A stretch of DNA of 64,000 nucleotides from Escherichia coli O127:H6 str. E2348/69 (GCF_000026545.1 NC_011601.1), one strand, 5' to 3'. Counted from the stretch's first letter, positions 2,672 through 45,732 are shown. Notes: a model not told the origin generated them from the sequence alone. Numbers and translations: made by a program.

Positions 2672-4221
2672 CTGTCTCTTATACACAAATCCCCACCCGG
2701 GGATTTGTGATGTCTGTCAGTCTGCTTTAGGGGGACTCTTTCCATCCGGTAGTTTCCTTCCTCCCCGGCAGCGATTTTTTGAACTTTTTCCTCACCCGTT
2801 GATCTTCTCTTATATTTCATTTTCTTCGGGTCTGTTATGGTACTTTCTGATTGTTATTCATGGGCTAACGAGCAGTTTGGACATGCCCGTCTCGGTGATC
2901 CGCGTCGTACACGACGCCTTGTGTCACTGGCCTCTTCTCTCGCTCAGCATGCAGGTCTTTCTATTGTGAAATCATCCCAGTCCACTGCTCAGGTTGAAGG
3001 TGCGTACCGCCTGATACGTAACCCGTCTGTGTCCCCGCAAGCCATTGCCGAAGCCGGATTTACCGCCACTGTAAGGGCATGTGAGGCTCATCCGCTGCTC
3101 CTCGCGCTGGAAGACACCACCACCATTAACTTCAGTCACAGTACGGCATCTGATGACCTGGGGAATACCACCACTAACCCGAAGACGCGCGGGCTGCTGG
3201 CTCACTCTGTCCTGATGTACGCCCCCGACAGCGCCCTGCCAGTCGGTCTTATCGAACAGCAGCGCTGGAGTCGTGCCACGGACACCTACGGTGTTAAGCA
3301 CCAGCGAAAAGAACGTCCCTATGAAGAAAAAGAAAGTTACCGCTGGCAGCAGGCTTCGGAGCGCATGGCCGAACGGCTGGGGGAGATACAGAAACGGGTA
3401 ATCACTGTCTGTGACCGGGAAGCGGATATCTGGCATTACCTGCATTATAAAGTCAGCCACGGGCAGCGCTTCGTGGTGCGTGCAGCACAGAATCGCCGGC
3501 TGGAAGAAGCACCCGGCAAGCTCTTCGAACTGCCGGAAGTCCTGGCAACCGCGGGAAGCCACACGCTGAATGTGATGCAAAAAGGCGGGCGGGCAGCCCG
3601 CCAGGCCCGGATGTTCATCAGTTACAGCGAAGTCAGCATAAAAAATCCCGACAACAGCGGCCAGGCGCTCCCGCTCACGTATGTCTGTTGCCGGGAGCAG
3701 GCAGAGGACGGCGCCTGCTGGCATCTGCTGACGTCAGAAAAAGTGGCGAGTGCCGCCGATGCGCGACGTATCGTCAGCCATTACGAGCGACGCTGGCTGA
3801 TAGAGGAATACCACAAGGCGTGGAAAAGTGGTGGTACATGTGTGGAATCGCTGCGAATGCAGACCCGGGATAACCTCGAGCGCATGGTGGTTATCAAGGC
3901 GTTTATCGCGGTGCGGGTGCTGGGCCTGCGGCAGGGCGGTATCAGTGAAGAAACACAAAATGACAGCTGTGAGAAAATACTGACGCCGACAGAGTGGAAA
4001 CTGCTGTGGGTTAAGCTGGAAGGAAAACCGCTTCCGTCACAGATGCCGACACTGAAATGGGCCTGTCTGAAACTGGCGAAACTGGGGCGATGGCATGACA
4101 GCAAACGCACCGGTCGCCCCGGTTGGGTAGTCATGTGGGATGGCTGGTTCAGACTTCAGGATATGGTTGAGGGTTACCTGGTGATGAAGTCTCTTGATCA
4201 GGAGATCTGATCAAGAGACAG
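2672..4221 (+). mobile_element. IS50/Tn5-like insertion sequence (IS4 family), copy 1, 1550 bp
   Basis: Ends CTGTCTCTTATACACAAAT (left, Tn5 outside-end-like) and CTGTCTCTTGATCAGATCT (right, inverted; identical to Tn5 inside end); flanked by 8/9-bp direct repeat tcctcggg; carries the 457-aa transposase. Confidence 0.9.
2837..4210 (+). CDS. IS50/Tn5-like DDE transposase (457 aa)
   Basis: N-terminus ...GDPRRTRRLV...EGAYRLIRNPSVS and C-terminal ...YERRWLIEEYHKAWKSG...DSKRTG motifs recall Tn5 Tnp; identical to the copy at 44194-45567. Confidence 0.9.
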   Translation: MVLSDCYSWANEQFGHARLGDPRRTRRLVSLASSLAQHAGLSIVKSSQSTAQVEGAYRLIRNPSVSPQAIAEAGFTATVRACEAHPLLLALEDTTTINFSHSTASDDLGNTTTNPKTRGLLAHSVLMYAPDSALPVGLIEQQRWSRATDTYGVKHQRKERPYEEKESYRWQQASERMAERLGEIQKRVITVCDREADIWHYLHYKVSHGQRFVVRAAQNRRLEEAPGKLFELPEVLATAGSHTLNVMQKGGRAARQARMFISYSEVSIKNPDNSGQALPLTYVCCREQAEDGACWHLLTSEKVASAADARRIVSHYERRWLIEEYHKAWKSGGTCVESLRMQTRDNLERMVVIKAFIAVRVLGLRQGGISEETQNDSCEKILTPTEWKLLWVKLEGKPLPSQMPTLKWACLKLAKLGRWHDSKRTGRPGWVVMWDGWFRLQDMVEGYLVMKSLDQEI

Positions 4222-5722: not shown

Positions 5723-8700
5723 TGCAGGTGTTACCCCCGAGCAGCACAGGCGGCCCGTCGCGCCTGTTTATTATGCGTCCTGTCGCCACCACGCTGCTGA
5801 TGGTGGCGATCTTACTCGCCGGGATTATCGGTTATCAAGCCCTGCCCGTTTCGGCGCTGCCGGAAGTGGACTATCCGACCATTCAGGTAGTCACGCTCTA
5901 CCCAGGTGCGAGCCCGGATGTCATGACCTCTGCCGTTACCGCGCCGCTTGAACGCCAGTTTGGGCAGATGTCTGGCCTGAAACAGATGTCGTCGCAAAGT
6001 TCCGGCGGTGCGTCAGTTATCACTTTGCAGTTCCAGCTAACATTACCGCTCGATGTCGCCGAGCAGGAAGTGCAGGCTGCGATTAACGCTGCGACCAACT
6101 TGTTGCCGAGCGATCTGCCTAACCCGCCGGTTTACAGCAAAGTGAACCCGGCAGATCCGCCGATCATGACGCTCGCTGTCACCTCAACCGCCATGCCGAT
6201 GACGCAAGTGGAAGATATGGTGGAAACCCGCGTCGCGCAGAAAATCTCGCAGATTTCCGGCGTCGGCCTGGTGACACTTTCCGGCGGTCAGCGTCCGGCT
6301 GTTCGCGTCAAACTTAACGCTCAGGCGATTGCCGCCCTCGGCCTGACCAGCGAAACCGTGCGCACCGCCATTACCGGCGCTAACGTCAACTCGGCAAAAG
6401 GTAGCCTCGACGGCCCTTCTCGTGCGGTTACGCTTTCCGCGAACGACCAGATGCAATCCGCCGAAGAGTATCGCCAGCTAATCATCGCCTACCAGAACGG
6501 CGCGCCGATTCGTCTGGGCGATGTCGCAACCGTAGAGCAAGGTGCAGAAAACAGCTGGCTTGGCGCATGGGCTAACAAAGAACAGGCCATTGTGATGAAT
6601 GTTCAGCGCCAGCCCGGTGCTAACATTATCTCCACCGCCGACAGCATTCGGCAGATGCTGCCACAGCTCACCGAGAGTCTGCCGAAATCGGTGAAGGTGA
6701 CGGTACTTTCTGACCGTACCACCAATATTCGCGCATCCGTGGATGATACTCAGTTTGAATTGATGATGGCTATCGCGCTGGTAGTCATGATTATCTATCT
6801 GTTTTTGCGTAATATTCCGGCGACCATCATTCCCGGCGTCGCAGTGCCGCTGTCGTTAATCGGCACCTTCGCGGTCATGGTGTTTCTCGATTTTTCAATC
6901 AATAACCTGACGCTGATGGCGTTAACTATCGCCACCGGATTTGTGGTCGATGACGCCATCGTGGTGATCGAAAACATTTCCCGCTATATCGAAAAAGGCG
7001 AAAAACCGCTGGCGGCGGCGCTCAAAGGCGCAGGTGAAATCGGTTTTACCATTATCTCGCTGACCTTCTCGCTGATTGCAGTGCTGATCCCGCTACTGTT
7101 TATGGGCGATATCGTCGGGCGACTGTTCCGCGAATTTGCTATTACTCTGGCAGTCGCGATTTTGATCTCAGCCGTGGTGTCGCTGACCCTGACACCAATG
7201 ATGTGCGCGCGGATGCTCAGCCAGGAGTCGCTGCGTAAACAGAACCGCTTCTCCCGTGCCTCGGAAAAAATGTTCGAAAGGATAATCGCCGCCTATGGTC
7301 AGGGACTTGCGAAAGTGCTGAATCATCCGTGGCTGACCTTAAGCGTGGCACTCAGCACGCTGCTGCTTAGTGTTCTCTTGTGGGTGTTCATTCCGAAAGG
7401 TTTCTTCCCGGTACAGGACAACGGCATTATTCAGGGCACTTTGCAGGCACCGCAATCCAGCTCCTTTGCCAATATGGCCCAGCGGCAACGCCAGGTCGCG
7501 GATGTGATTTTGCAAGATCCGGCGGTGCAAAGTCTGACCTCATTTGTTGGCGTTGATGGCACTAACCCGTCGCTGAACAGTGCGCGTTTGCAGATCAACC
7601 TCAAACCGTTGGATGAACGTGATGATCGGGTGCAAAAAGTCATCGCCCGTCTGCAAACGGCGGTGGATAAAGTGCCGGGCGTCGATCTCTTCCTGCAACC
7701 AACGCAGGACCTGACCATCGATACTCAGGTCAGCCGCACCCAGTACCAGTTTACCTTGCAGGCCACGTCACTGGATGCGCTCAGTACCTGGGTGCCACAG
7801 TTGATGGAAAAACTCCAGCAACTGCCACAGCTTTCTGATGTCTCCAGCGACTGGCAGGACAAAGGGCTGGTGGCGTATGTCAATGTTGATCGCGACAGCG
7901 CCAGCCGTCTGGGGATCAGCATGGCGGACGTCGATAACGCCCTTTACAACGCGTTTGGTCAGCGACTGATTTCCACTATTTATACTCAGGCCAACCAGTA
8001 TCGCGTGGTGCTGGAGCACAACACCGAAAATACTCCTGGGCTTGCGGCGCTGGATACTATTCGCCTGACCAGCAGCGACGGCGGCGTGGTACCGCTAAGC
8101 TCAATTGCCAAAATTGAGCAGCGTTTTGCGCCGCTTTCCATCAACCATCTGGATCAGTTCCCGGTAACGACCATCTCCTTTAACGTGCCGGATAACTATT
8201 CGCTGGGCGATGCGGTGCAGGCGATTATGGACACCGAAAAGACGCTGAATCTGCCGGTGGATATCACCACGCAGTTCCAGGGCAGCACCCTCGCCTTCCA
8301 GTCGGCGTTGGGCAGCACTGTCTGGCTGATTGTCGCGGCGGTGGTGGCGATGTATATCGTGCTCGGCATTCTGTACGAGAGCTTTATTCACCCGATCACC
8401 ATTCTCTCGACGCTACCCACCGCAGGGGTCGGCGCACTGCTGGCGTTACTGATTGCCGGTAGCGAGCTGGATGTGATTGCGATTATCGGCATTATTTTGC
8501 TGATCGGTATCGTGAAGAAGAACGCCATCATGATGATCGACTTCGCGCTGGCTGCTGAGCGCGAGCAAGGCATGTCGCCGCGCGATGCAATCTACCAGGC
8601 TTGTCTGTTGCGTTTTCGTCCGATCCTGATGACCACCCTGGCGGCTCTGCTTGGCGCGCTGCCGCTGATGTTGAGTACCGGGGTCGGCGCGGAACTGCGT

Positions 8701-35685: not shown

Positions 35686-36963
35686 ATGAAAACAACAGCA
35701 AAGCTGTCGTTCATGATGTTTGTTGAATGGTTTATCTGGGGCGCGTGGTTTGTGCCATTGTGGTTGTGGTTAAGTAAAAGCGGTTTTAGTGCCGGAGAAA
35801 TTGGCTGGTCGTATGCCTGTACCGCCATTGCGGCGATCCTGTCGCCGATTCTGGTTGGCTCCATCACTGACCGCTTTTTCTCGGCGCAGAAAGTGCTGGC
35901 GGTATTGATGTTCGCTGGTGCGGTGCTGATGCATTTCGCTGCGCAACAGACCACTTTTGCCGGGTTCTTCCCGTTACTGCTGGCCTACTCACTAACCTAT
36001 ATGCCGACCATTGCGCTGACTAACAGTATCGCTTTTGCCAACGTGCCGGATGTGGAGCGTGATTTCCCGCGCATTCGTGTGATGGGCACTATCGGCTGGA
36101 TTGCCTCTGGTCTGGCATGTGGTTTCTTGCCGCAAATGCTGGGGTATGCCGATATCTCACCGACGAACATCCCGCTGCTGATTACCGCCGGAAGTTCTGC
36201 TCTGCTTGGTGTGTTTGCGTTTTTCCTGCCAGACACGCCACCAAAAAGCACCGGCAAAATGGATATTAAAGTCATGCTCGGCCTGGATGCGCTGATCCTG
36301 CTGCGCGATAAGAACTTCCTCGTCTTTTTCTTCTGTTCATTCCTGTTTGCGATGCCACTGGCGTTCTATTACATCTTTGCCAACGGTTATCTGACCGAAG
36401 TTGGCATGAAAAACGCCACTGGCTGGATGACGCTCGGCCAGTTCTCTGAAATCTTCTTTATGCTGGCATTGCCGTTTTTCACTAAACGCTTTGGTATCAA
36501 AAAGGTATTGTTGCTTGGTCTGGTCACCGCTGCGATCCGCTATGGCTTCTTTATTTACGGTAGTGCGGATGAATATTTCACCTACGCGTTACTGTTCCTC
36601 GGTATTTTGCTGCACGGCGTAAGTTACGATTTTTACTACGTTACCGCTTACATCTATGTCGATAAAAAAGCTCCCGTGCATATGCGTACCGCCGCGCAGG
36701 GGCTGATCACGCTCTGCTGCCAGGGCTTCGGCAGTTTGCTCGGCTATCGTCTTGGCGGTGTGATGATGGAAAAGATGTTCGCTTATCAGGAACCGGTAAA
36801 CGGACTGACTTTCAACTGGGCCGGGATGTGGACTTTCGGCGCGGTGATGATTGCCATTATCGCCGTGCTGTTCATGATTTTTTTCCGCGAATCCGACAAC
36901 GAAATTACGGCTATCAAGGTCGATGATCGCGATATTGCGTTGACACAAGGGGAAGTTAAATGA
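35686..36963 (+). CDS. yegT: Nucleoside-permease-like MFS transporter
   Basis: 425-aa 12-TM ORF. Confidence 0.88.
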   Translation: MKTTAKLSFMMFVEWFIWGAWFVPLWLWLSKSGFSAGEIGWSYACTAIAAILSPILVGSITDRFFSAQKVLAVLMFAGAVLMHFAAQQTTFAGFFPLLLAYSLTYMPTIALTNSIAFANVPDVERDFPRIRVMGTIGWIASGLACGFLPQMLGYADISPTNIPLLITAGSSALLGVFAFFLPDTPPKSTGKMDIKVMLGLDALILLRDKNFLVFFFCSFLFAMPLAFYYIFANGYLTEVGMKNATGWMTLGQFSEIFFMLALPFFTKRFGIKKVLLLGLVTAAIRYGFFIYGSADEYFTYALLFLGILLHGVSYDFYYVTAYIYVDKKAPVHMRTAAQGLITLCCQGFGSLLGYRLGGVMMEKMFAYQEPVNGLTFNWAGMWTFGAVMIAIIAVLFMIFFRESDNEITAIKVDDRDIALTQGEVK

Positions 36964-37964
36964 AAACAGAACGTATTCTCGGTGCTCTTTATGGGCAGGC
37001 GTTAGGGGATGCGATGGGGATGCCCTCCGAGCTTTGGCCGCGCAGTCGCGTCAAAGCACACTTTGGCTGGATTGACCGTTTTCTGCCTGGGCCAAAGGAG
37101 AATAACGCGGCCTGTTATTTTAACCGCGCCGAATTCACCGACGATACCTCGATGGCGCTGTGTCTGGCGGATGCGTTACTGGAACGTAAAGGCAAGATCG
37201 ATCCGGATCTGATTGGGCGTAATATTCTCGACTGGGCGCTGCGTTTCGACGCCTTTAACAAAAACGTACTAGGTCCGACCTCGAAGATTGCTCTCAACGC
37301 CATTCGCGACGGTAAACCCGTTGCTGAACTGGAAAACAACGGCGTGACCAACGGCGCAGCGATGCGCGTCTCGCCATTAGGTTGTTTGCTTCCGGCGCGT
37401 GATGTTGATTCCTTTATTGATGATGTGGCGCTGGCGTCGAGCCCGACCCATAAATCCGATCTGGCAGTTGCAGGTGCGGTAGTCATCGCATGGGCGATTT
37501 CTCGTGCCATTGACGGAGAAAGCTGGTCAGCGATTGTTGATTCACTGCCTTCAATTGCGCGACATGCACAGCAAAAACGCATCACTACCTTCAGTGCCTC
37601 ACTGGCAGCACGTCTGGAGATTGCGCTGAAAATTGTGCGCAATGCCGACGGCACCGAATCCGCCAGCGAACAGCTGTATCAGGTCGTTGGCGCAGGTACC
37701 AGCACTATTGAGTCCGTTCCGTGCGCCATTGCGCTGGTTGAACTGGCACAAACCGACCCGAATCGCTGCGCCGTCCTGTGCGCTAACCTTGGCGGCGACA
37801 CAGACACCATAGGTGCTATGGCGACGGCAATTTGCGGCGCGTTGCATGGCGTTAACGCTATCGATCCTGCGTTAAAGGCGGAGCTGGATGCGGTAAATCA
37901 GCTTGATTTCAACCGCTATGCCACAGCGCTGGCGAAATATCGTCAACAACGGGAGGTGGTATGA
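36960..37964 (+). CDS. yegU: ADP-ribosylglycohydrolase-family protein
   Basis: 334-aa ORF with N-terminal GALYGQALGDAMGMP motif; overlaps yegT stop. Confidence 0.88.
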   Translation: MKTERILGALYGQALGDAMGMPSELWPRSRVKAHFGWIDRFLPGPKENNAACYFNRAEFTDDTSMALCLADALLERKGKIDPDLIGRNILDWALRFDAFNKNVLGPTSKIALNAIRDGKPVAELENNGVTNGAAMRVSPLGCLLPARDVDSFIDDVALASSPTHKSDLAVAGAVVIAWAISRAIDGESWSAIVDSLPSIARHAQQKRITTFSASLAARLEIALKIVRNADGTESASEQLYQVVGAGTSTIESVPCAIALVELAQTDPNRCAVLCANLGGDTDTIGAMATAICGALHGVNAIDPALKAELDAVNQLDFNRYATALAKYRQQREVV

Positions 37965-38926
37965 GCAGCGCTCGATTACACACGCTGCTGCCTGAATTAA
38001 CCCCGCGTCAGCCAGTTATGGTGATTGGCGCGGCGGTCATTGATGTGATCGCCGACGCTTATGCCCTCCCCTGGCGTGGGTGCGATATCGAACTGAAACA
38101 GCAGAGCGTTAACGTTGGCGGCTGCGCACTGAATATTGCCGTGGCGTTAAAGCGCCTCGGCATCGAAGCGGGTAATGCCTTGCCGCTCGGTCAGGGGGTG
38201 TGGGCGGAGATTATTCGCAACCGGATGGCAAAAGAGGACTTAATCAGCCTGATCGATAACGCCGAAGGTGATAACGGCTGGTGTCTGGCGCTGGTTGAGC
38301 CTGATGGCGAACGCACTTTTATGTCATTCAGCGGTGTGGAAAATCAGTGGAATCGCCAGTGGCTGGCGCGATTAACCGTTGCGCCTGGCAGCCTGCTCTA
38401 TTTTTCCGGTTATCAACTGGCCTCGCCCTGCGGCGAATTGTTAGTGGAATGGCTGGAAGAGCTGCAAGACGTGACGCCATTTATCGATTTTGGCCCACGT
38501 ATTGGCGATATCCCGGATGCATTACTGGCGCGGATCATGGCCTGTCGACCTTTAGTGTCACTCAATCGTCAAGAGGCTGAGATTGCCGCCGAACGTTTTG
38601 CTCTATCCGCAGAGATAACAACACTAGGCAAGCAATGGCAGGAGAAATTTGCCGCGCCGTTGATCGTTCGTCTCGATAAAGAGGGCGCATGGTATTTCAG
38701 CAACGACGCTTCTGGCTGCATTCCGGCATTTCCAACGCAAGTTGTAGACACCATTGGGGCGGGCGACAGTCATGCCGGCGGCGTACTTGCCGGGCTGGCC
38801 TCTGGTCTGCCACTGGCGGATGCCGTATTACTGGGCAATGCAGTGGCGTCGTGGGTTGTCGGGCATCGGGGTGGTGATTGTGCGCCAACGCGCGAGGAAC
38901 TACTCCTCGCACACAAAAACGTATAG
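37961..38926 (+). CDS. yegV: PfkB-family carbohydrate/nucleoside kinase
   Basis: 321-aa ORF with PfkB signature DTIGAGDSHAGG; overlaps yegU stop. Confidence 0.88.
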   Translation: MSSARLHTLLPELTPRQPVMVIGAAVIDVIADAYALPWRGCDIELKQQSVNVGGCALNIAVALKRLGIEAGNALPLGQGVWAEIIRNRMAKEDLISLIDNAEGDNGWCLALVEPDGERTFMSFSGVENQWNRQWLARLTVAPGSLLYFSGYQLASPCGELLVEWLEELQDVTPFIDFGPRIGDIPDALLARIMACRPLVSLNRQEAEIAAERFALSAEITTLGKQWQEKFAAPLIVRLDKEGAWYFSNDASGCIPAFPTQVVDTIGAGDSHAGGVLAGLASGLPLADAVLLGNAVASWVVGHRGGDCAPTREELLLAHKNV

Positions 38927-39646
38927 ATCGCTGCGACAGTGGCTTATGCTGTACTCAATAGGCCGTTGCTGTTGGTCAAGCGCCACTTGCTTGATCACCA
39001 GCACCGGTATTTTGCTATCTAACTGAATATGTGACTGAAACTCGGCATCCGGCATCCGGGCGCTAACGCGGGAACGCGTACGTTGTGGGTAAATGTGCTG
39101 GCTGCGGAAGTAGTCATAAAGAGAAATTCCGATGGCATCAACATCATGAATTAAATGCGCCGGAACCCACGATTCCTCAATCGATACCGCCTCTTCATCG
39201 ACATAGCGAATACGCTTAAGCAAAAAGACATCACTTCCCGCTTCGACCGCCAGCTGTTGCGCGACTTCTTCGGGACATTTCACGACACGCTTGTTAACCC
39301 ATAGCGTATCGGGCTTTTTCCCGCGCAATACCACCTGCTGAGAAAACCCCCGCGCTTCTTTCAGCGAGTATTCGAAGATGTTGTTGATCTGCGTGCCGTA
39401 ACCACGCGAACGCGTCACCACGCCCTCTTCTTCCAGCGACTGCATCGCCTTGCGCACCGTAATGCGCGAAACGCCGGTTAACTGACTTAAATCACGCTCA
39501 CCGGGCAAAATATTGCCATGCTCCAGCACCCCGCTGCGCACGGCATTTTTTACCGTTTCGGCAAACTTAATATAAAGCGGCGTGTTATCCGCCGCTAAAA
39601 TACGCTCGTTCAGTTGGGCAATCAGCTGGGTATGCGCTTGTTCCAT
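38900..39646 (-). CDS. yegW: GntR-family transcriptional regulator
   Basis: 248-aa ORF, N-terminal GntR HTH and UTRA-like C-terminus; 3' end overlaps yegV 3' end by 27 bp (convergent). Confidence 0.88.
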   Translation of the reverse strand: MEQAHTQLIAQLNERILAADNTPLYIKFAETVKNAVRSGVLEHGNILPGERDLSQLTGVSRITVRKAMQSLEEEGVVTRSRGYGTQINNIFEYSLKEARGFSQQVVLRGKKPDTLWVNKRVVKCPEEVAQQLAVEAGSDVFLLKRIRYVDEEAVSIEESWVPAHLIHDVDAIGISLYDYFRSQHIYPQRTRSRVSARMPDAEFQSHIQLDSKIPVLVIKQVALDQQQRPIEYSISHCRSDLYVFVCEE

Positions 39647-39697
39647 TTGTCTTTTTCCTGCCGGGGAATCTGGTGGGAGTATATCACTGCTTCATAT

Positions 39698-40525
39698 TTA
39701 AGGCGTTTCTTTAATCCCATCAACGAATCCCTGCAACTCCTCCACCGTGCCATTAAACACATTAAAATCCACCGGACCATTAATGCCATCGACCTGTCCA
39801 CGGTCGGAATGCTGCCAGAAGCGCCAGGCCATACCGTCATTGTCCGGGCGACGTTGATAATAGTGAGCCACCCACCACGGATATTCATTGAAATAGCCCG
39901 CCAGATTGGTGTGATAAAAAACGGCTCCTGAGTAAATAATTGGCTTTTTACCCGTACGTTTTTCGACCATTTTTAGCCACTGACTTACCCGCTTGCGTAA
40001 TTCTTTTGCCGATAATTTTCCCCGTTCTTCTACGTCCAGCACGGCAGGGAAATCGCCTTGTGAGAAATCCACCGTTTGCAGAAATAATCTCGCCTGAACT
40101 GAAGCAGATACCGACGGGGAAAAATAATGATACGCCCCGCGCAGCAGGCCATTTTCGCGGCTTAGTTGCCAGTTACGCGAAAAATAGGGGTCCACCAGCT
40201 TTTCGCCTTCCGTCGCCTTAATAAAGGCAAATTGTAAGCGAATACCGTTATCGCGCATTTTTGTCACCCGCTGCCAGTCGATCCGCTCCTGCCAGCGCGA
40301 AACATCTATTCCGTGAATGGTGTAACTGGCAGGAATGCGAATAGCGAAAGATTTAACCGGGCGATAACCGTAGAAGTGAATGTAGTCTTTAATCTGAATT
40401 GCTGTCGAATAGAAAAAGTTCACCGTCTGACGCGGATAAATTGCAACGATGGAAATTAGCCCAAGAGCGCATAATAAAACGGTGAATTTTTTTCGACTGG
40501 TGATTCTCAACTGCATTGGTTTCAT
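39698..40525 (-). CDS. yegX: GH25 (lysozyme-like) family protein with N-terminal membrane anchor
   Basis: 275-aa ORF, GH25-like core; start could also be the Met 3 codons downstream. Confidence 0.82.
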   Translation of the reverse strand: MKPMQLRITSRKKFTVLLCALGLISIVAIYPRQTVNFFYSTAIQIKDYIHFYGYRPVKSFAIRIPASYTIHGIDVSRWQERIDWQRVTKMRDNGIRLQFAFIKATEGEKLVDPYFSRNWQLSRENGLLRGAYHYFSPSVSASVQARLFLQTVDFSQGDFPAVLDVEERGKLSAKELRKRVSQWLKMVEKRTGKKPIIYSGAVFYHTNLAGYFNEYPWWVAHYYQRRPDNDGMAWRFWQHSDRGQVDGINGPVDFNVFNGTVEELQGFVDGIKETP

Positions 40526-40580
40526 CCCTGAATGTCAGCACCAAAGGCTGACAATAACCAAAGCAGCTATAGTACGGTGC

Positions 40581-41381
40581 TCACCACCAGGCGTGGAAGT
40601 GGTGAACCGGACCAATACCGTGACCAACTTCCAGCGTGTCGGCCTGGGCTAATGCCGATGAAAGCCAGCTTTTTGCCTCCTGTACGGTGTCAGCCCAGTT
40701 TGTATGGCGCGGGCGTAGTGCAGCCAACGCCGCAGAGAGCGTACAACCAGTGCCGTGAGTGTTTTTGGTCATAATGCGCTGTGCGGTAAACCGTTGTTCA
40801 CCCTCGCGGGTAAACAGCCAGTCCGGGCTTTGCTCATCATCCAGATGACCACCTTTCATTAGCACTGCGCCACAGCCCATCGCCAACAGCGATCGCCCTT
40901 GTTCCAGCATTTCCTGTTCGGTGCGCGCGTGTGGCGCGTCGAGCATGGCGGCTGCTTCGGGCAAGTTTGGTGTTATTAATGAAACCTGTGGCAATAATCG
41001 ACTGCGTAGCGTGGCAACTGCCGAAGGTGAAAGCAGCGGGTCGCCGCTTTTTGCCAGCATAACGGTGTCGAGTACCACGTTTTGGATCTGATAACGTTGC
41101 AACCGTTCTGCCACCGCTTCAACAATATCGGTTTCCGCCAACATACCGATTTTAGTGGTGTCGATTCGCACATCGCTGAACACCGAATCGAGCTGGGCGG
41201 CGACAAAATCAGGCTCAATGCGATACACCGACTGTACGCCACGGGTATTTTGCGCCACCAGTGCAGTAATAACTGAGCAACCATAAGCGCCAAGTGCCGA
41301 GAAGGTTTTAAGATCGGCCTGAATCCCCGCACCACCACTCGGATCAGTACCGGCAATCGTCAGAGCGTTAATTCGTTTCAT
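40581..41381 (-). CDS. thiD: Hydroxymethylpyrimidine/phosphomethylpyrimidine kinase
   Basis: 266-aa ORF, PfkB-like ThiD motifs. Confidence 0.93.
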
Positions 41382-42157
41382 GCCTGCACCTCCTGCGCCA
41401 ATTGCCAGAGCGCATCAAGGAAATGTGGAACAAAACTACCTGGCCCCTCGCTTCTGGCGACTGCGCGTTCTCCGGCTTGTTTCATCCAGTGACAGGCAGA
41501 TGCGACATTTTCCAGCGTATCGCCTGGTAGCGCACAACAGGCAGCGACAACCGCCGATAATGCACAGCCAGTTCCTACCACTTTGGTCATTAGCGGATCG
41601 CCACCGTGAATGCCAACGATACGATGTCCATCGGTAACATAATCCACCTCGCCAGTGACCACGACGATTGCGCCAGTTTCCCGTGCCAGTGTTTGTGCAG
41701 CAGGTATCGCGTTAGCTGCGGCATCAGTGGTATCCACTCCCCGTCCACCATTAGCAACGCCAGCTAATGCCATGATTTCCGAAGCATTACCACGTATGGC
41801 GGTTGGCTTATGGGACAGAAGTTCCACACAAAAACGGCGGCGATAATCGAGCGCACCAACCGCAACCGGATCAAGCGTCCAGGGCGTTTGTGCTTGCTCA
41901 ACGGCAGCACTCATCGCTTGCGCTCGTGGCTGCGTCAGCGTGCCAACGTTAATCAACAAGGCACTGGCGATAGCCGCAAACTGACTGGCCTCTTCGGTTT
42001 CGATAACCATTGCTGGCGATGCACCGAGCGCCAGCAATGTATTGGCAGTAAAGGTTTGCACCACATCGTTGGTCATACAGTGCACAAGAGGGGAATGTTG
42101 GTGAAAAAGGTGTAACGCGTGCGCAGATTGCGCTGAACTCAGCAGGTCGACTTGCAT
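41378..42157 (-). CDS. thiM: Hydroxyethylthiazole kinase
   Basis: 259-aa ORF, overlaps thiD start; TPP riboswitch immediately upstream. Confidence 0.93.
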
Positions 42158-42164
42158 AGTTTGC

Positions 42165-42300
42165 TCCTGCCATAACGTGAAGAAGCAATGACCTGGTGGT
42201 CCGTGACTTCCCTACGCTGGCATTATCCAGATCAGGTGATACGGGTATTTCTCAGCCTTCACGCAGAAGGGCACCCCGAGTCGTTTGGTTGCGATGATAA
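42165..42300 (-). promoter_or_regulatory. TPP riboswitch (thi-box) in thiM leader
   Basis: Minus strand reads GGGGTGCCC...CTGAGAAATACCCGTATCACCTGATCTGGATAATGCCAGCGTAGGGAAGTCACGGACCACCAGGTCATTGCTTCTTCACG, the conserved thiM aptamer and expression platform. Confidence 0.88.
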
Positions 42301-42379
42301 ATCGCAGAGGAGGATGGTAATGTCCAGCGCACGCGTTGTAAACGAAGAAAAACGGCGGTATTACAATAACGTTGTGAAA

Positions 42380-42652
42380 TTATTTGATATAAGAATCCAG
42401 CACCTTCAGAACGACATCCAGATCTTCTTCACGTTTTAGCTCATCCCCCTGGTGAACGATGTGTTCCGTCAGATGGCCTTTAATCACTTCCCGCATCAGA
42501 CCGTTTACCGCGCCACGGATAGCAGCAATCTGTTGTAAAACTGCAGCGCATTCATGCGGTTCGTCGAGCATTTTCTTGAGCGCCACGACCTGGCCCTGAA
42601 TCTTACTGGCACGCGCTTTCAGTTTCTGTTTATCACGGATTGTATGAGACAT
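42380..42652 (-). CDS. rcnR: Ni/Co-responsive repressor RcnR (CsoR/RcnR family)
   Basis: 90-aa ORF, divergent from rcnA. Confidence 0.93.
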
Positions 42653-42700
42653 GGCAACACCTGGTTAACAAGAATATGAAAAATCATAGCACTATTAATC

Positions 42701-42735
42701 TACTGGGGGGTAGTATCAGGTACTGGGGGGGAGTA
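42701..42735. promoter_or_regulatory. RcnR operator, two TACT-G6/7-N-AGTA sites
   Basis: TACTGGGGGGTAGTA and TACTGGGGGGGAGTA in the rcnR-rcnA spacer. Confidence 0.8.
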
Positions 42736-42772
42736 GAATCAGATTGCCGAATTAATACTAAGAATTATTATC

Positions 42773-43603
42773 ATGACCGAATTTACAACACTTCTTCAGC
42801 AAGGAAACGCCTGGTTCTTCATCCCCAGCGCCATCTTACTTGGTGCGCTTCATGGCCTAGAACCGGGGCACTCAAAAACGATGATGGCGGCGTTTATCAT
42901 CGCCATCAAAGGCACCATTAAACAGGCGGTGATGCTCGGACTGGCAGCAACCATTTCGCATACCGCAGTGGTCTGGTTAATTGCCTTTGGCGGGATGGTG
43001 ATCAGCAAACGCTTTACTGCTCAATCAGCAGAACCGTGGCTCCAGTTGATTTCCGCAGTGATCATTATTAGCACCGCGTTCTGGATGTTCTGGCGTACCT
43101 GGCGCGGCGAACGCAACTGGCTGGAGAATATGCACGAGCATGATCATGATCATGAGCATCATCACCACGATCACGAAGATCACCACGACCATGGACATCA
43201 TCACCATCACGAACATGGCGAGTATCAGGATGCCCATGCACGAGCCCATGCCAATGACATTAAACGACGCTTTGATGGTAGAGAGGTCACCAACTGGCAA
43301 ATTTTGCTATTTGGCTTAACCGGTGGCCTTATCCCCTGCCCGGCAGCAATTACCGTGCTGTTGATTTGCATTCAGTTGAAAGCCCTGACACTGGGCGCAA
43401 CACTGGTCGTCAGTTTCAGCCTCGGCCTGGCGTTAACGCTTGTCACCGTAGGCGTTGGCGCAGCAATCAGCGTTCAGCAGGTCGCAAAACGCTGGAGCGG
43501 ATTTAACACTCTCGCTAAACGCGCTCCCTATTTTTCCAGTCTGTTGATTGGCTTAGTTGGTGTGTATATGGGCGTACATGGCTTCATGGGCATAATGCGA
43601 TAA
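42773..43603 (+). CDS. rcnA: Nickel/cobalt efflux protein RcnA
   Basis: 276-aa membrane ORF with His-rich loop HEHDHDHEHHHHDHEDHHDHGHHHHHEH. Confidence 0.93.
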   Translation: MTEFTTLLQQGNAWFFIPSAILLGALHGLEPGHSKTMMAAFIIAIKGTIKQAVMLGLAATISHTAVVWLIAFGGMVISKRFTAQSAEPWLQLISAVIIISTAFWMFWRTWRGERNWLENMHEHDHDHEHHHHDHEDHHDHGHHHHHEHGEYQDAHARAHANDIKRRFDGREVTNWQILLFGLTGGLIPCPAAITVLLICIQLKALTLGATLVVSFSLGLALTLVTVGVGAAISVQQVAKRWSGFNTLAKRAPYFSSLLIGLVGVYMGVHGFMGIMR

Positions 43604-44182: not shown

Positions 44183-45732
44183 CTGTCTCTTGATCAGATC
44201 TCCTGATCAAGAGACTTCATCACCAGGTAACCCTCAACCATATCCTGAAGTCTGAACCAGCCATCCCACATGACTACCCAACCGGGGCGACCGGTGCGTT
44301 TGCTGTCATGCCATCGCCCCAGTTTCGCCAGTTTCAGACAGGCCCATTTCAGTGTCGGCATCTGTGACGGAAGCGGTTTTCCTTCCAGCTTAACCCACAG
44401 CAGTTTCCACTCTGTCGGCGTCAGTATTTTCTCACAGCTGTCATTTTGTGTTTCTTCACTGATACCGCCCTGCCGCAGGCCCAGCACCCGCACCGCGATA
44501 AACGCCTTGATAACCACCATGCGCTCGAGGTTATCCCGGGTCTGCATTCGCAGCGATTCCACACATGTACCACCACTTTTCCACGCCTTGTGGTATTCCT
44601 CTATCAGCCAGCGTCGCTCGTAATGGCTGACGATACGTCGCGCATCGGCGGCACTCGCCACTTTTTCTGACGTCAGCAGATGCCAGCAGGCGCCGTCCTC
44701 TGCCTGCTCCCGGCAACAGACATACGTGAGCGGGAGCGCCTGGCCGCTGTTGTCGGGATTTTTTATGCTGACTTCGCTGTAACTGATGAACATCCGGGCC
44801 TGGCGGGCTGCCCGCCCGCCTTTTTGCATCACATTCAGCGTGTGGCTTCCCGCGGTTGCCAGGACTTCCGGCAGTTCGAAGAGCTTGCCGGGTGCTTCTT
44901 CCAGCCGGCGATTCTGTGCTGCACGCACCACGAAGCGCTGCCCGTGGCTGACTTTATAATGCAGGTAATGCCAGATATCCGCTTCCCGGTCACAGACAGT
45001 GATTACCCGTTTCTGTATCTCCCCCAGCCGTTCGGCCATGCGCTCCGAAGCCTGCTGCCAGCGGTAACTTTCTTTTTCTTCATAGGGACGTTCTTTTCGC
45101 TGGTGCTTAACACCGTAGGTGTCCGTGGCACGACTCCAGCGCTGCTGTTCGATAAGACCGACTGGCAGGGCGCTGTCGGGGGCGTACATCAGGACAGAGT
45201 GAGCCAGCAGCCCGCGCGTCTTCGGGTTAGTGGTGGTATTCCCCAGGTCATCAGATGCCGTACTGTGACTGAAGTTAATGGTGGTGGTGTCTTCCAGCGC
45301 GAGGAGCAGCGGATGAGCCTCACATGCCCTTACAGTGGCGGTAAATCCGGCTTCGGCAATGGCTTGCGGGGACACAGACGGGTTACGTATCAGGCGGTAC
45401 GCACCTTCAACCTGAGCAGTGGACTGGGATGATTTCACAATAGAAAGACCTGCATGCTGAGCGAGAGAAGAGGCCAGTGACACAAGGCGTCGTGTACGAC
45501 GCGGATCACCGAGACGGGCATGTCCAAACTGCTCGTTAGCCCATGAATAACAATCAGAAAGTACCATAACAGACCCGAAGAAAATGAAATATAAGAGAAG
45601 ATCAACGGGTGAGGAAAAAGTTCAAAAAATCGCTGCCGGGGAGGAAGGAAACTACCGGATGGAAAGAGTCCCCCTAAAGCAGACTGACAGACATCACAAA
45701 TCCCCGGGTGGGGATTTGTGTATAAGAGACAG
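44183..45732 (-). mobile_element. IS50/Tn5-like insertion sequence (IS4 family), copy 2, 1550 bp, inverted relative to copy 1
   Basis: Same terminal sequences as copy 1; perfect 9-bp target-site duplication CGGAGAGAG at 44174-44182 and 45733-45741. Confidence 0.92.
44194..45567 (-). CDS. IS50/Tn5-like DDE transposase (457 aa)
   Basis: Protein identical to the ORF at 2837-4210. Confidence 0.9.
   Translation of the reverse strand: MVLSDCYSWANEQFGHARLGDPRRTRRLVSLASSLAQHAGLSIVKSSQSTAQVEGAYRLIRNPSVSPQAIAEAGFTATVRACEAHPLLLALEDTTTINFSHSTASDDLGNTTTNPKTRGLLAHSVLMYAPDSALPVGLIEQQRWSRATDTYGVKHQRKERPYEEKESYRWQQASERMAERLGEIQKRVITVCDREADIWHYLHYKVSHGQRFVVRAAQNRRLEEAPGKLFELPEVLATAGSHTLNVMQKGGRAARQARMFISYSEVSIKNPDNSGQALPLTYVCCREQAEDGACWHLLTSEKVASAADARRIVSHYERRWLIEEYHKAWKSGGTCVESLRMQTRDNLERMVVIKAFIAVRVLGLRQGGISEETQNDSCEKILTPTEWKLLWVKLEGKPLPSQMPTLKWACLKLAKLGRWHDSKRTGRPGWVVMWDGWFRLQDMVEGYLVMKSLDQEI

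Follow-up and report, generated by a model that had tools for sequence, protein, structure and literature searches.

The yegTUV operon of Escherichia coli and its regulator YegW (GgaR) are a textbook 'y-gene' system, the regulation of which is known and the chemistry is not. Published studies of this locus used strain K-12; here we analyzed the same genes within a stretch of 64,000 nt of E. coli O127:H6 E2348/69 (the window), to which coordinates refer unless another locus is named. In K-12, chromatin immunoprecipitation with microarray detection (ChIP-chip) revealed one target of GgaR, the spacer between fbaB and yegT, together with a weaker site within the yegT open reading frame (ORF; nt 571-869) (PMC10819704, Saito et al. 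2024). A single yegTUV mRNA of ~3.3 kb, detected with yegT and yegV probes, was undetectable in the wild type and ~30-fold up in a yegW deletion mutant (PMC10819704). ADP-glucose (ADPG) at 10-100 µM freed GgaR from DNA in gel shifts, but glucose and ADP did not, and the level of the repressor was constant, at ~20-30 molecules per cell (PMC10819704). Deletion of ggaR gave 2-3 times more glycogen and slower growth on glucose minimal medium, and deletion of yegV was reported to result in less glycogen (PMC10819704). Saito et al. proposed a role in ADP-glucose/glycogen metabolism; the operator motif, the 3′ overlap of yegV and yegW, and the enzyme activities were not treated (PMC10819704).

The present analysis suggests, with a probability of about 0.5, that yegTUV and yegW/ggaR constitute a self-contained, repressor-controlled operon for the uptake and catabolism or salvage of a non-canonical riboside. 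In the proposed pathway, YegT would import the compound by proton symport, YegV would phosphorylate the 5′-OH of its ribosyl moiety, and YegU, a Mg2+-dependent enzyme of the ADP-ribosylglycohydrolase (ARH) fold, would hydrolyze the C1′ bond of the resulting riboside 5′-phosphate to give ribose 5-phosphate and the free aglycone. The three genes are translated from one mRNA with start/stop overlaps, and GgaR holds the operon about 30-fold repressed, probably via GGTAT repeats located just upstream of yegT. A sugar-nucleotide-like ligand frees the operon of GgaR (ADPG in vitro); the in vivo inducer is probably a phosphorylated pathway intermediate, of which ADPG may be a mimic. Layout, family membership, co-transcription, repression, the YegU-YegV association and the conservation of the overlap are established, whereas the substrate class, the order of the reactions, the physiological inducer and the operator sequence are proposals. 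The distinguished features are as follows.

35686-36963, plus strand: yegT, a permease of the major facilitator superfamily (MFS), nucleoside:H+ symporter (NHS) family, supported by the ORF listing, RefSeq and Pfam
36960-37964, plus strand: yegU, an ARH-fold enzyme that retains the di-metal ligands; start codon and yegT stop overlap in ATGA
37961-38926, plus strand: yegV, a PfkB-family kinase; its start overlaps the yegU stop (GGGAGGTGGTATGA)
38900-39646, minus strand: yegW (= ggaR), a HutC-subfamily GntR repressor of yegTUV (winged helix-turn-helix, wHTH, plus UTRA domain)
38900-38926, unstranded: overlap of the coding 3′ ends of yegV and yegW, 27 bp; a CTA leucine codon of the partner gene lies opposite each TAG stop
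35610-35657, unstranded: fbaB-yegT spacer, candidate operator for GgaR, AAAGGTATT-t-AAAAGGTATT with a spacing of 11 bp, followed by a third repeat, TGGTATT, and by GTACCTT
36493-36521, plus strand: internal GGTATcaaaaaGGTAT repeat (11-bp spacing) and GGTCT in yegT, a possible secondary, weaker GgaR site

The ORF listing and the RefSeq annotation of the E2348/69 record, which is 100% identical to the window, give the same coordinates, to the base, for yegT, yegU, yegV and yegW, in agreement with an earlier reading of the sequence alone (the original prediction), which had placed a convergent yegW behind yegT-yegU-yegV. The arrangement is an annotated and published one, and the co-transcription of the three genes, on which the original prediction depended, had already been documented as the single ~3.3 kb mRNA (PMC10819704). 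The T/U junction reads AAGGGGAAGTTAAATGA (containing AAATGA) and the U/V junction GGGAGGTGGTATGA; each is a 4-nt ATGA-type start/stop overlap with a Shine-Dalgarno-like run upstream, inside the preceding gene, and this combination points to a translationally coupled operon. For comparison, 80 loci with close YegU relatives were collected, one genome per species, from genera including Escherichia, Citrobacter, Salmonella, Enterobacter, Raoultella, Pectobacterium, Buttiauxella, Cedecea, Atlantibacter and Mangrovibacter. The ATGA of the T/U junction is kept in 70 of the 80, start/stop overlaps as such are conserved across these loci, and the order of a divergent fbaB, then yegT-yegU-yegV and a convergent yegW, is essentially universal among them. 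The locus was found in 5424 of 5426 complete E. coli genomes, and yegV/yegW is the sole overlapping pair among the six convergent gene pairs of the window. The layout is more than chance: it is near-universal in E. coli, the synteny and the exact overlap recur in Enterobacterales, and the overlap is unique in the window. Upstream of yegT lies the divergent fbaB (34376-35428), and yegX, thiD and thiM come after yegW on the minus strand. The longest fbaB ORF (374 aa; window 34376-35500) exceeds the annotated one (350 aa) by 72 nt at its start; as the additional part extends into the conserved fbaB-yegT spacer, the annotated start is likelier.

YegT matches Pfam PF03825 (Nuc_H_symport) with 609 bits (cut-off 25.9) and TIGR00889 with 651 bits (cut-off 446), and is the only enzyme or transporter protein of the operon to reach a curated function-level cut-off. 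Its best PDB match, 8ZOJ, 'Putative nucleoside transporter YegT', covers residues 1-425 (E 6.8e-281, 935 bits). These scores place its sequence in the NHS family of the MFS; at superfamily level the assignments of all four proteins of the locus leave no ambiguity. The crystallized protein gave no signal in isothermal titration calorimetry (ITC) with uridine, adenosine, cytidine or guanosine, and the base-contact residues of NupG are not conserved in it (PMC11979927); no transport of uridine, cytidine, xanthosine or gemcitabine was found (PMC11241209). Canonical nucleosides are excluded as YegT substrates, and a modified nucleoside fits these negatives. An ADP-ribose derivative is unlikely to be the species carried by YegT.

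YegU scores 225 bits against PF03747 (ADP_ribosyl_GH; cut-off 26.2), over profile positions 1-285 of 287. In an alignment to ARH3 the glutamate (in GMPSE/PSE), FTDDT and GGDTDT are kept, i.e. all metal and catalytic positions, which we take to be E41, T76-D77-D78 and D314-D316-T317 in ARH3 numbering. With all these positions kept, YegU is probably catalytically active, as a Mg2+-dependent enzyme that hydrolyzes a ribosyl C1 bond. It has no NCBIfam equivalog, reaching 80 of the 337 bits set for DraG and 69 of the 490 set for Tri1. YegU lacks three residues of the ARH3 loop KGS-Y149 (the loop with S148/Y149) and has N and V where ARH3 has F143 and Y149. In ARH3, F143 and Y149 presumably hold the adenine and the diphosphate; if that role is right, YegU would lack recognition of the ADP moiety.

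The family score, the weak matches to DraG, Tri1 and ARH3, and the complete conservation of the metal ligands might also belong to a true de-ADP-ribosylating enzyme acting on protein, nucleic-acid or small-molecule conjugates or on O-acetyl-ADP-ribose, in which case the operon would handle ADP-ribose derivatives. We regard this as very improbable in view of the distance of YegU from the DraG and Tri1 cut-offs and of its shortened loop with N/V in place of F143/Y149 (the roles of these residues being as presumed above). Besides, an obligate sugar/nucleoside kinase and a nucleoside/base permease are unexpected partners for a de-modification enzyme, and the gene annotation of the window contains no ADP-ribosyltransferase gene nearby.

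YegV matches PF00294 (PfkB) with 190 bits and contains the GG motif (VGGCALN) and, towards the C-terminus, the DTxGAGD motif of the anion hole and catalytic Asp (DTIGAGD; DTIGAGDSHAGG). Its best equivalog is ribokinase, at 81 bits against a cut-off of 300. Aligned to a ribokinase, YegV has Val and Cys at the positions of the Asn (GSxNxD) and the Lys (GGKG) that we take to be ribose-pocket residues, so that both the score and the pocket positions set it apart from ribokinase (RbsK) proper. Its nearest structures are generic ribokinases, with matches of about 1e-14, and the nearest solved relative of YegU, MJ1187 (PDB 1T5J), is itself uncharacterized; solved structures thus gave no functional assignment for either protein. 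Orthology of YegV with aminoimidazole riboside (AIRs) kinase was likewise rejected (48 against 450 bits), and AIRs kinase is absent from the PDB matches at E <= 1e-5. In a 2025 survey YegV is still an 'uncharacterized sugar kinase EC 2.7.1.-'.

The association of these two enzymes extends far beyond enterobacteria. A search with YegU against 1.84 billion cluster representatives gave 236 matches below 1e-30, including proteins of 600-760 residues. Nine of the ten long homologues that were scanned are ARH and PfkB fusions, four in the order PfkB-ARH and five in the order ARH-PfkB, and their kinase portion is YegV-like, with 26-31% identity and the LVEPDGERTF block in common. Unfused distant homologues of YegU (40-57% identity) adjoin a PfkB kinase in 6 of 6 cases from three phyla: Photobacterium damselae, a metagenome-assembled genome of Actinomycetaceae, Lentilactobacillus raoultii, Pediococcus stilesii and two more metagenomic contigs. 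The adjoining kinases are 32-43% identical to YegV (E 1e-47 to 1e-80, against about 1e-14 for ribokinases and YegV), and YegV-like kinases carry small residues at the Asn and Lys positions of the ribokinase pocket. A functional link between glycohydrolase and kinase is strongly supported by these pairings and fusions. Outside Enterobacterales, NCS1 permeases or ECF systems, neither of them related to YegT (NHS), take the place of the transporter, a classic non-orthologous displacement in which the import function is kept. Recurrent neighbours of the distant pairs encode PNP_UDP_1, DeoC, phosphopentomutase-like and isochorismatase-family proteins as well as HutC-type GntR regulators; the GntR/UTRA regulator of Photobacterium is 31% identical to YegW. 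The nucleoside-type uptake/breakdown module is far more widespread than E. coli.

The original prediction had described the operon as a module for the uptake, deglycosylation and phosphorylation of a modified nucleoside or an ADP-ribose derivative. Co-transcription, the link between YegU and YegV and the negative results for YegT speak for the module and for a modified nucleoside; an ADP-ribose derivative is unlikely as the cargo. A broader proposal, possible if doubtful, is that YegU and YegV represent a two-enzyme route spread over at least three phyla and sometimes fused, in which the ARH fold, instead of acting on ADP-ribose conjugates, would serve as an N-, O- or C-glycosidase of a riboside 5′-phosphate made by the kinase. 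Such a route would salvage a non-canonical riboside, probably derived from the host or its microbiota, and the glycogen phenotype of E. coli would be a side effect of deregulation.

Genes of thiamine metabolism were also seen near ARH/PfkB modules: TenA is encoded downstream of the pair in Lentilactobacillus raoultii (L091 10365-11192), and thiMD lies by the enterobacterial yegW. According to the literature, the kinase STM4066 of a paralogous Salmonella operon feeds AIR into thiamine synthesis. The recurrence of thiamine genes may be coincidence.

Two orders of the enzymatic steps have to be weighed. To our knowledge, all characterized ARH substrates carry a phosphate on C5 (5′′-phosphate) of the ribose that is cleaved. 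The pseudouridine pathway of E. coli runs kinase-first, and NagR/YvoA, the Bacillus subtilis regulator with the solved structure closest to YegW, senses sugar phosphates. In the Salmonella STM4065-4066-4067 operon an ARH gene stands beside the gene of a kinase proven to act on a riboside, AIRs (PMC3161100). Because of these four points, phosphorylation by YegV before cleavage by YegU is the order that we tentatively favour.

The original prediction named the steps in the other order, in which YegU would cleave the riboside to ribose and aglycone and YegV, as a dedicated ribokinase-type enzyme, would phosphorylate the ribose. The best NCBIfam and PDB matches of YegV are indeed ribokinases, but its score of 81 bits is far from the cut-off of 300, its Val and Cys and the small residues of YegV-like kinases depart from the Asn and Lys of the ribokinase pocket, E. 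coli already has RbsK, and a hydrolase acting first would meet a substrate without the 5′′-phosphate borne by known ARH substrates. Ribose loci of Bacteroidetes, in which ribokinases occur together with exchangeable 'ribose-liberating' enzymes, ADP-ribosylglycohydrolases among them (bioRxiv 10.1101/574913), provide a precedent for cleavage first; the kinase of the paralogous Salmonella operon acts on the intact riboside (PMC3161100). Overall, we consider cleavage before phosphorylation, the main alternative to our proposal, rather unlikely.

Several points weigh against the riboside operon with phosphorylation as its first reaction. The only GgaR ligand found to work is ADPG, which is not such a riboside, and the published phenotypes concern glycogen. 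The best named matches of YegV, being ribokinases, fit the reverse order, and the adenine-contact role of the ARH3 residues compared with YegU (F143 and Y149, aligned with N and V) is a presumed one. Gene neighbourhood points to a class of compounds, not to a compound, and in the literature on YegU/YegV biochemistry and on ARH and PfkB pathways no substrate, product or activity has been assigned to YegT, YegU or YegV.

The first of these points belongs to the model of Saito et al. (2024), in which yegTUV acts directly on the supply of ADPG, by import or formation, and GgaR senses ADPG and sets the level of glycogen. It accounts for the release of GgaR by 10-100 µM ADPG (but not by glucose or ADP), for the 2-3 times higher glycogen content and slower growth on glucose minimal medium of the ggaR mutant, and for the lower glycogen reported for the yegV mutant (PMC10819704). 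Only three ligands were compared in that test, however, with no ADP-ribose, nucleoside or sugar phosphate among them (PMC10819704), and the enzymatic link to ADPG in the model is hypothetical. This sugar nucleotide has no ribosyl C1′′ conjugate bond of the type cleaved by ARH enzymes, the known substrates of NHS and NCS1 carriers are nucleosides and bases without charge, and the YegU-YegV pair adjoins PNP, DeoC and NCS1 genes in lactobacilli, actinomycetes and vibrios. The effects on glycogen and growth may be indirect, arising from a 30-fold over-expressed kinase/glycosidase pair. A direct role in ADPG supply therefore appears quite improbable to us.

In YegW, an N-terminal GntR wHTH (PF00392, 59.5 bits) and a C-terminal UTRA effector domain (PF07702, 125 bits) define a HutC-subfamily protein. 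The published GgaR study defines no operator motif (PMC10819704). Among 70 distinct fbaB-yegT spacer sequences of Enterobacterales, the best-conserved blocks are AAAGGTATT-n-AAAAGGTAT (11-bp spacing), TGGTAT and GTACC, at 35610-35657 in the window; this segment is contained in the 190-bp spacer probe shifted by GgaR (PMC10819704). There are just three exact copies of the 8-mer AAAGGTAT in the 64-kb window, two in the spacer block and one at 36501, where it again lies within GGTAT-n6-GGTAT, inside the segment of yegT (nt 571-869) that is bound more weakly by GgaR. This internal copy is largely accounted for by the conserved peptide RFGIKKVLLLGL; as synonymous sites are only moderately conserved, it was kept as a weak or secondary site only. 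We infer that the two GgaR-binding regions known from the literature are each marked by GGTAT repeats at an 11-bp spacing, which represent a candidate operator. A scan for sigma-70 promoters revealed nothing convincing for yegT or yegW.

The yegV TAG occupies 38924-38926 and the yegW stop, cta on the plus strand, 38900-38902, confirming the 27-bp overlap noticed in the original prediction. Of the 80 loci, 78 were informative for the overlap. In 73 of them the overlap, measured from stop to stop, has a length of exactly 27 bp, though YegV is only 62-83% identical. The C-terminus of YegW, CRSDLYVFVCEE, is invariant, and YegV ends in LLLA[HDYNT][KE][NDH][VI], with variation limited to YegW wobble positions. 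Each stop (TAG/TAA) complements a CTA/TTA leucine codon of the partner gene. Leu241 of YegW is encoded by CTA or TTA in 72 of 73 loci, compared with a mean of 12% (range 0-40%) at 15 other conserved leucines. Use of these rare codons at Leu241 points to codon-level selection preserving the yegV stop: a synonymous CTG would lengthen YegV by about 31 residues.

The remaining five loci comprise four insertions and one 1-bp deletion. The insertions, of 56-111 bp, separate the two genes in Citrobacter amalonaticus S646, C. sedlakii (a 69-bp insert between yegV and yegW) and two assemblies of Buttiauxella agrestis; both genes are intact, with the YegW C-terminus kept and the YegV tail replaced. C. 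amalonaticus S646, in which the insertion is a partial duplication, is the one locus with CTG at Leu241. The ~110-bp insertion of B. agrestis (L075 7966-8078, L080 7966-8077) contains GAACGCAGCCAACAAAGATGC.G.TTGAAGTATGACGGG and is presumably ERIC-like; here YegV gains a new C-terminal tail (…EQLCQYPK) and YegW is unchanged. In Yokenella regensburgei (L038, about 7940-7982) a 1-base deletion within the overlap (CTCGCAACAAAAACG against CTCGCACACAAAAACG) frameshifts both gene ends, which is either an assembly error or decay and incipient loss of the regulator. As the insertion loci keep both genes, these alignments indicate an overlap that is ancestral and constrained but dispensable. Its retention would be explained by the invariant C-terminus of YegW together with the extension of YegV that would follow loss of the yegV stop. 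The overlap guarantees short complementary 3′ ends; any regulatory effect would be secondary.

Antisense transcriptional interference between yegV and yegW, which the original prediction had regarded as implied by the overlap, is possible. The geometry does force complementary transcripts, since overlapping coding sequences make overlapping mRNAs unavoidable, and yegV-yegW belongs to the 165 convergent excludons that ExcludonFinder recognized in 50% or more of 58 RNA-seq sets of MG1655 (PMC12288877). It resembles the other convergent excludons of that list, in which it appears by name, in its orientation and overlapping transcripts; unlike them, its overlap takes in coding sequence of both genes, and it is known by geometry and listing, not by the reciprocal inhibition of expression (through transcriptional interference or RNase III processing) that defines an excludon, on which the literature yielded no data. 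'Implies' was too strong a word: interference is compatible with the geometry and the listing, not entailed by them.

A functional excludon, in which induction of yegTUV would lower yegW through convergent transcription and/or RNase III and so create positive feedback and a switch-like response, would draw further on the lack of an intrinsic terminator between the genes and on the fixed overlap length in 73 of 78 loci. However, protein constraints (the YegW C-terminus, the wobble-limited YegV tail and the CTA/TTA codons) account for that conservation, and the four loci with 56-111 bp insertions keep both genes intact. The yegT ATG and the yegV stop are 3241 nt apart, little less than the ~3.3 kb of the mRNA, so read-through into yegW is probably short. 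GgaR is constant at ~20-30 molecules per cell, and the published GgaR study does not address interference or mention antisense effects (PMC10819704). We consider such a switch unlikely.

The consensus scan for intrinsic terminators over 35300-40700 gave 8 sites against 7.2 expected, none of them downstream of either stop. The yegW stop sits in the middle of a perfect GC-rich hairpin with a 7-bp stem (38892-38910, GCGAGGA-actac-TCCTCGC), which lacks a U-tract on both strands. A second hairpin, longer but imperfect, occupies 38939-38986, and both fold in E. coli (z = -2.2 on the plus strand). RNAalifold across 43 species yielded -6.7 kcal/mol with essentially no covariation, i.e. no conserved structure downstream of the yegV stop, and on these grounds a conserved terminator embedded at yegV/yegW was rejected. 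An Rfam search of 34000-43000 (E <= 0.1) found only the thiamine pyrophosphate (TPP) riboswitch of thiM.

On the minus strand of 39698-42288 the order is TPP riboswitch, thiM, thiD, yegX and yegW. Detection of the yegX gene (GH25 lysozyme-like) was confined to some of the Escherichia loci (L003-L005 and L001, the window strain); in other genera (L007-L081) about 40-50 bp lie between the end of thiD and the downstream yegW. After thiD no terminator-like site was seen in E. coli. The yegW gene may receive read-through from the thiamine-regulated thiMD operon.

Elsewhere in the window, two copies of ISEc13 (IS4-like), at 2837-4210 (plus strand) and 44194-45567 (minus strand), encode the identical transposase WP_000244358.1 in inverted orientation. 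They bracket about 40 kb comprising mdtABCD-baeSR, the dal and gat sugar-alcohol clusters, yegTUVW, thiMD and rcnRAB, a potential inversion substrate. The segment 25546-27841, adjoining the D-arabinitol cluster dalD-xylB-dalT, holds a LacI-family fragment, an SDR fragment and a frameshifted FGGY kinase gene with an internal stop, the remnants of a decayed sugar-utilization island. Annotated frameshifted pseudogenes are yehC (49347-50022), a DUF4132 gene (54898-58694) and yehK (62391-62707).

The pair of kinase and ARH genes is met with repeatedly, as two genes or as one fusion, in enterobacteria, vibrios, lactobacilli and actinomycetes, and the identity of its substrate would give a function to this recurrent pair and to three conserved E. 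coli genes. It would also clarify how direct the reported link to ADP-glucose and glycogen is and, if the riboside interpretation is true, extend catalysis by the ARH fold beyond ADP-ribose. Species with and without the 27-bp overlap provide a clean natural experiment on the regulatory role of a coding 3′ overlap. New in this work are the conservation of the overlap with its constrained leucine codon, the YegU-YegV pairing and fusions across phyla, and the GGTAT operator repeats.

Among known systems, the E. coli psuT-psuG-psuK genes (yeiM-yeiN-yeiC) likewise combine a nucleoside permease, a PfkB kinase and a glycosidase. In that pathway the kinase acts first and the glycosidase cleaves the 5′-phosphate to ribose 5-phosphate and the base. 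The components differ: PsuG has another fold than the ARH proteins, the permease is of the CNT and not the NHS type, and YegV scores 19.5 against 540 bits on the pseudouridine kinase model. ARH3, DraG, Tri1 and MJ1187 (PDB 1T5J) share with YegU the fold and the same set of di-Mg2+ ligands; identity is low, the ADP-contacting loop differs, and the kinase and permease partners of YegU are unlike those of known ARH enzymes.

Closest of all is the yegTUV-ggaR system of E. coli K-12 (PMC10819704), with the same locus, operon structure, repressor, two binding regions and one 3.3 kb mRNA, though its published reading is one of ADP-glucose and glycogen. The rus loci of Bacteroidetes (bioRxiv 10.1101/574913) resemble yegTUV in uniting ribokinase-family kinases, a transporter and variable ribose-liberating enzymes, ADP-ribosylglycohydrolases included, but they are SusC/D-based polysaccharide utilization loci (PULs) with another regulator and true ribokinase-type kinases, and have been shown to respond to ribose. 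Salmonella STM4065-4067 also combines a PfkB kinase gene with a putative ARH gene; its kinase phosphorylates an unusual riboside, aminoimidazole riboside (Dougherty & Downs 2003, as cited in PMC3161100), and the ARH gene has a role in persistence in the gut (PMC3161100). This operon is a paralogous module and not an orthologue: Salmonella has a YegU orthologue as well (83-88% identity), and YegV reaches only 48 of 450 bits on a model of the fructokinase/AIRs-kinase type.

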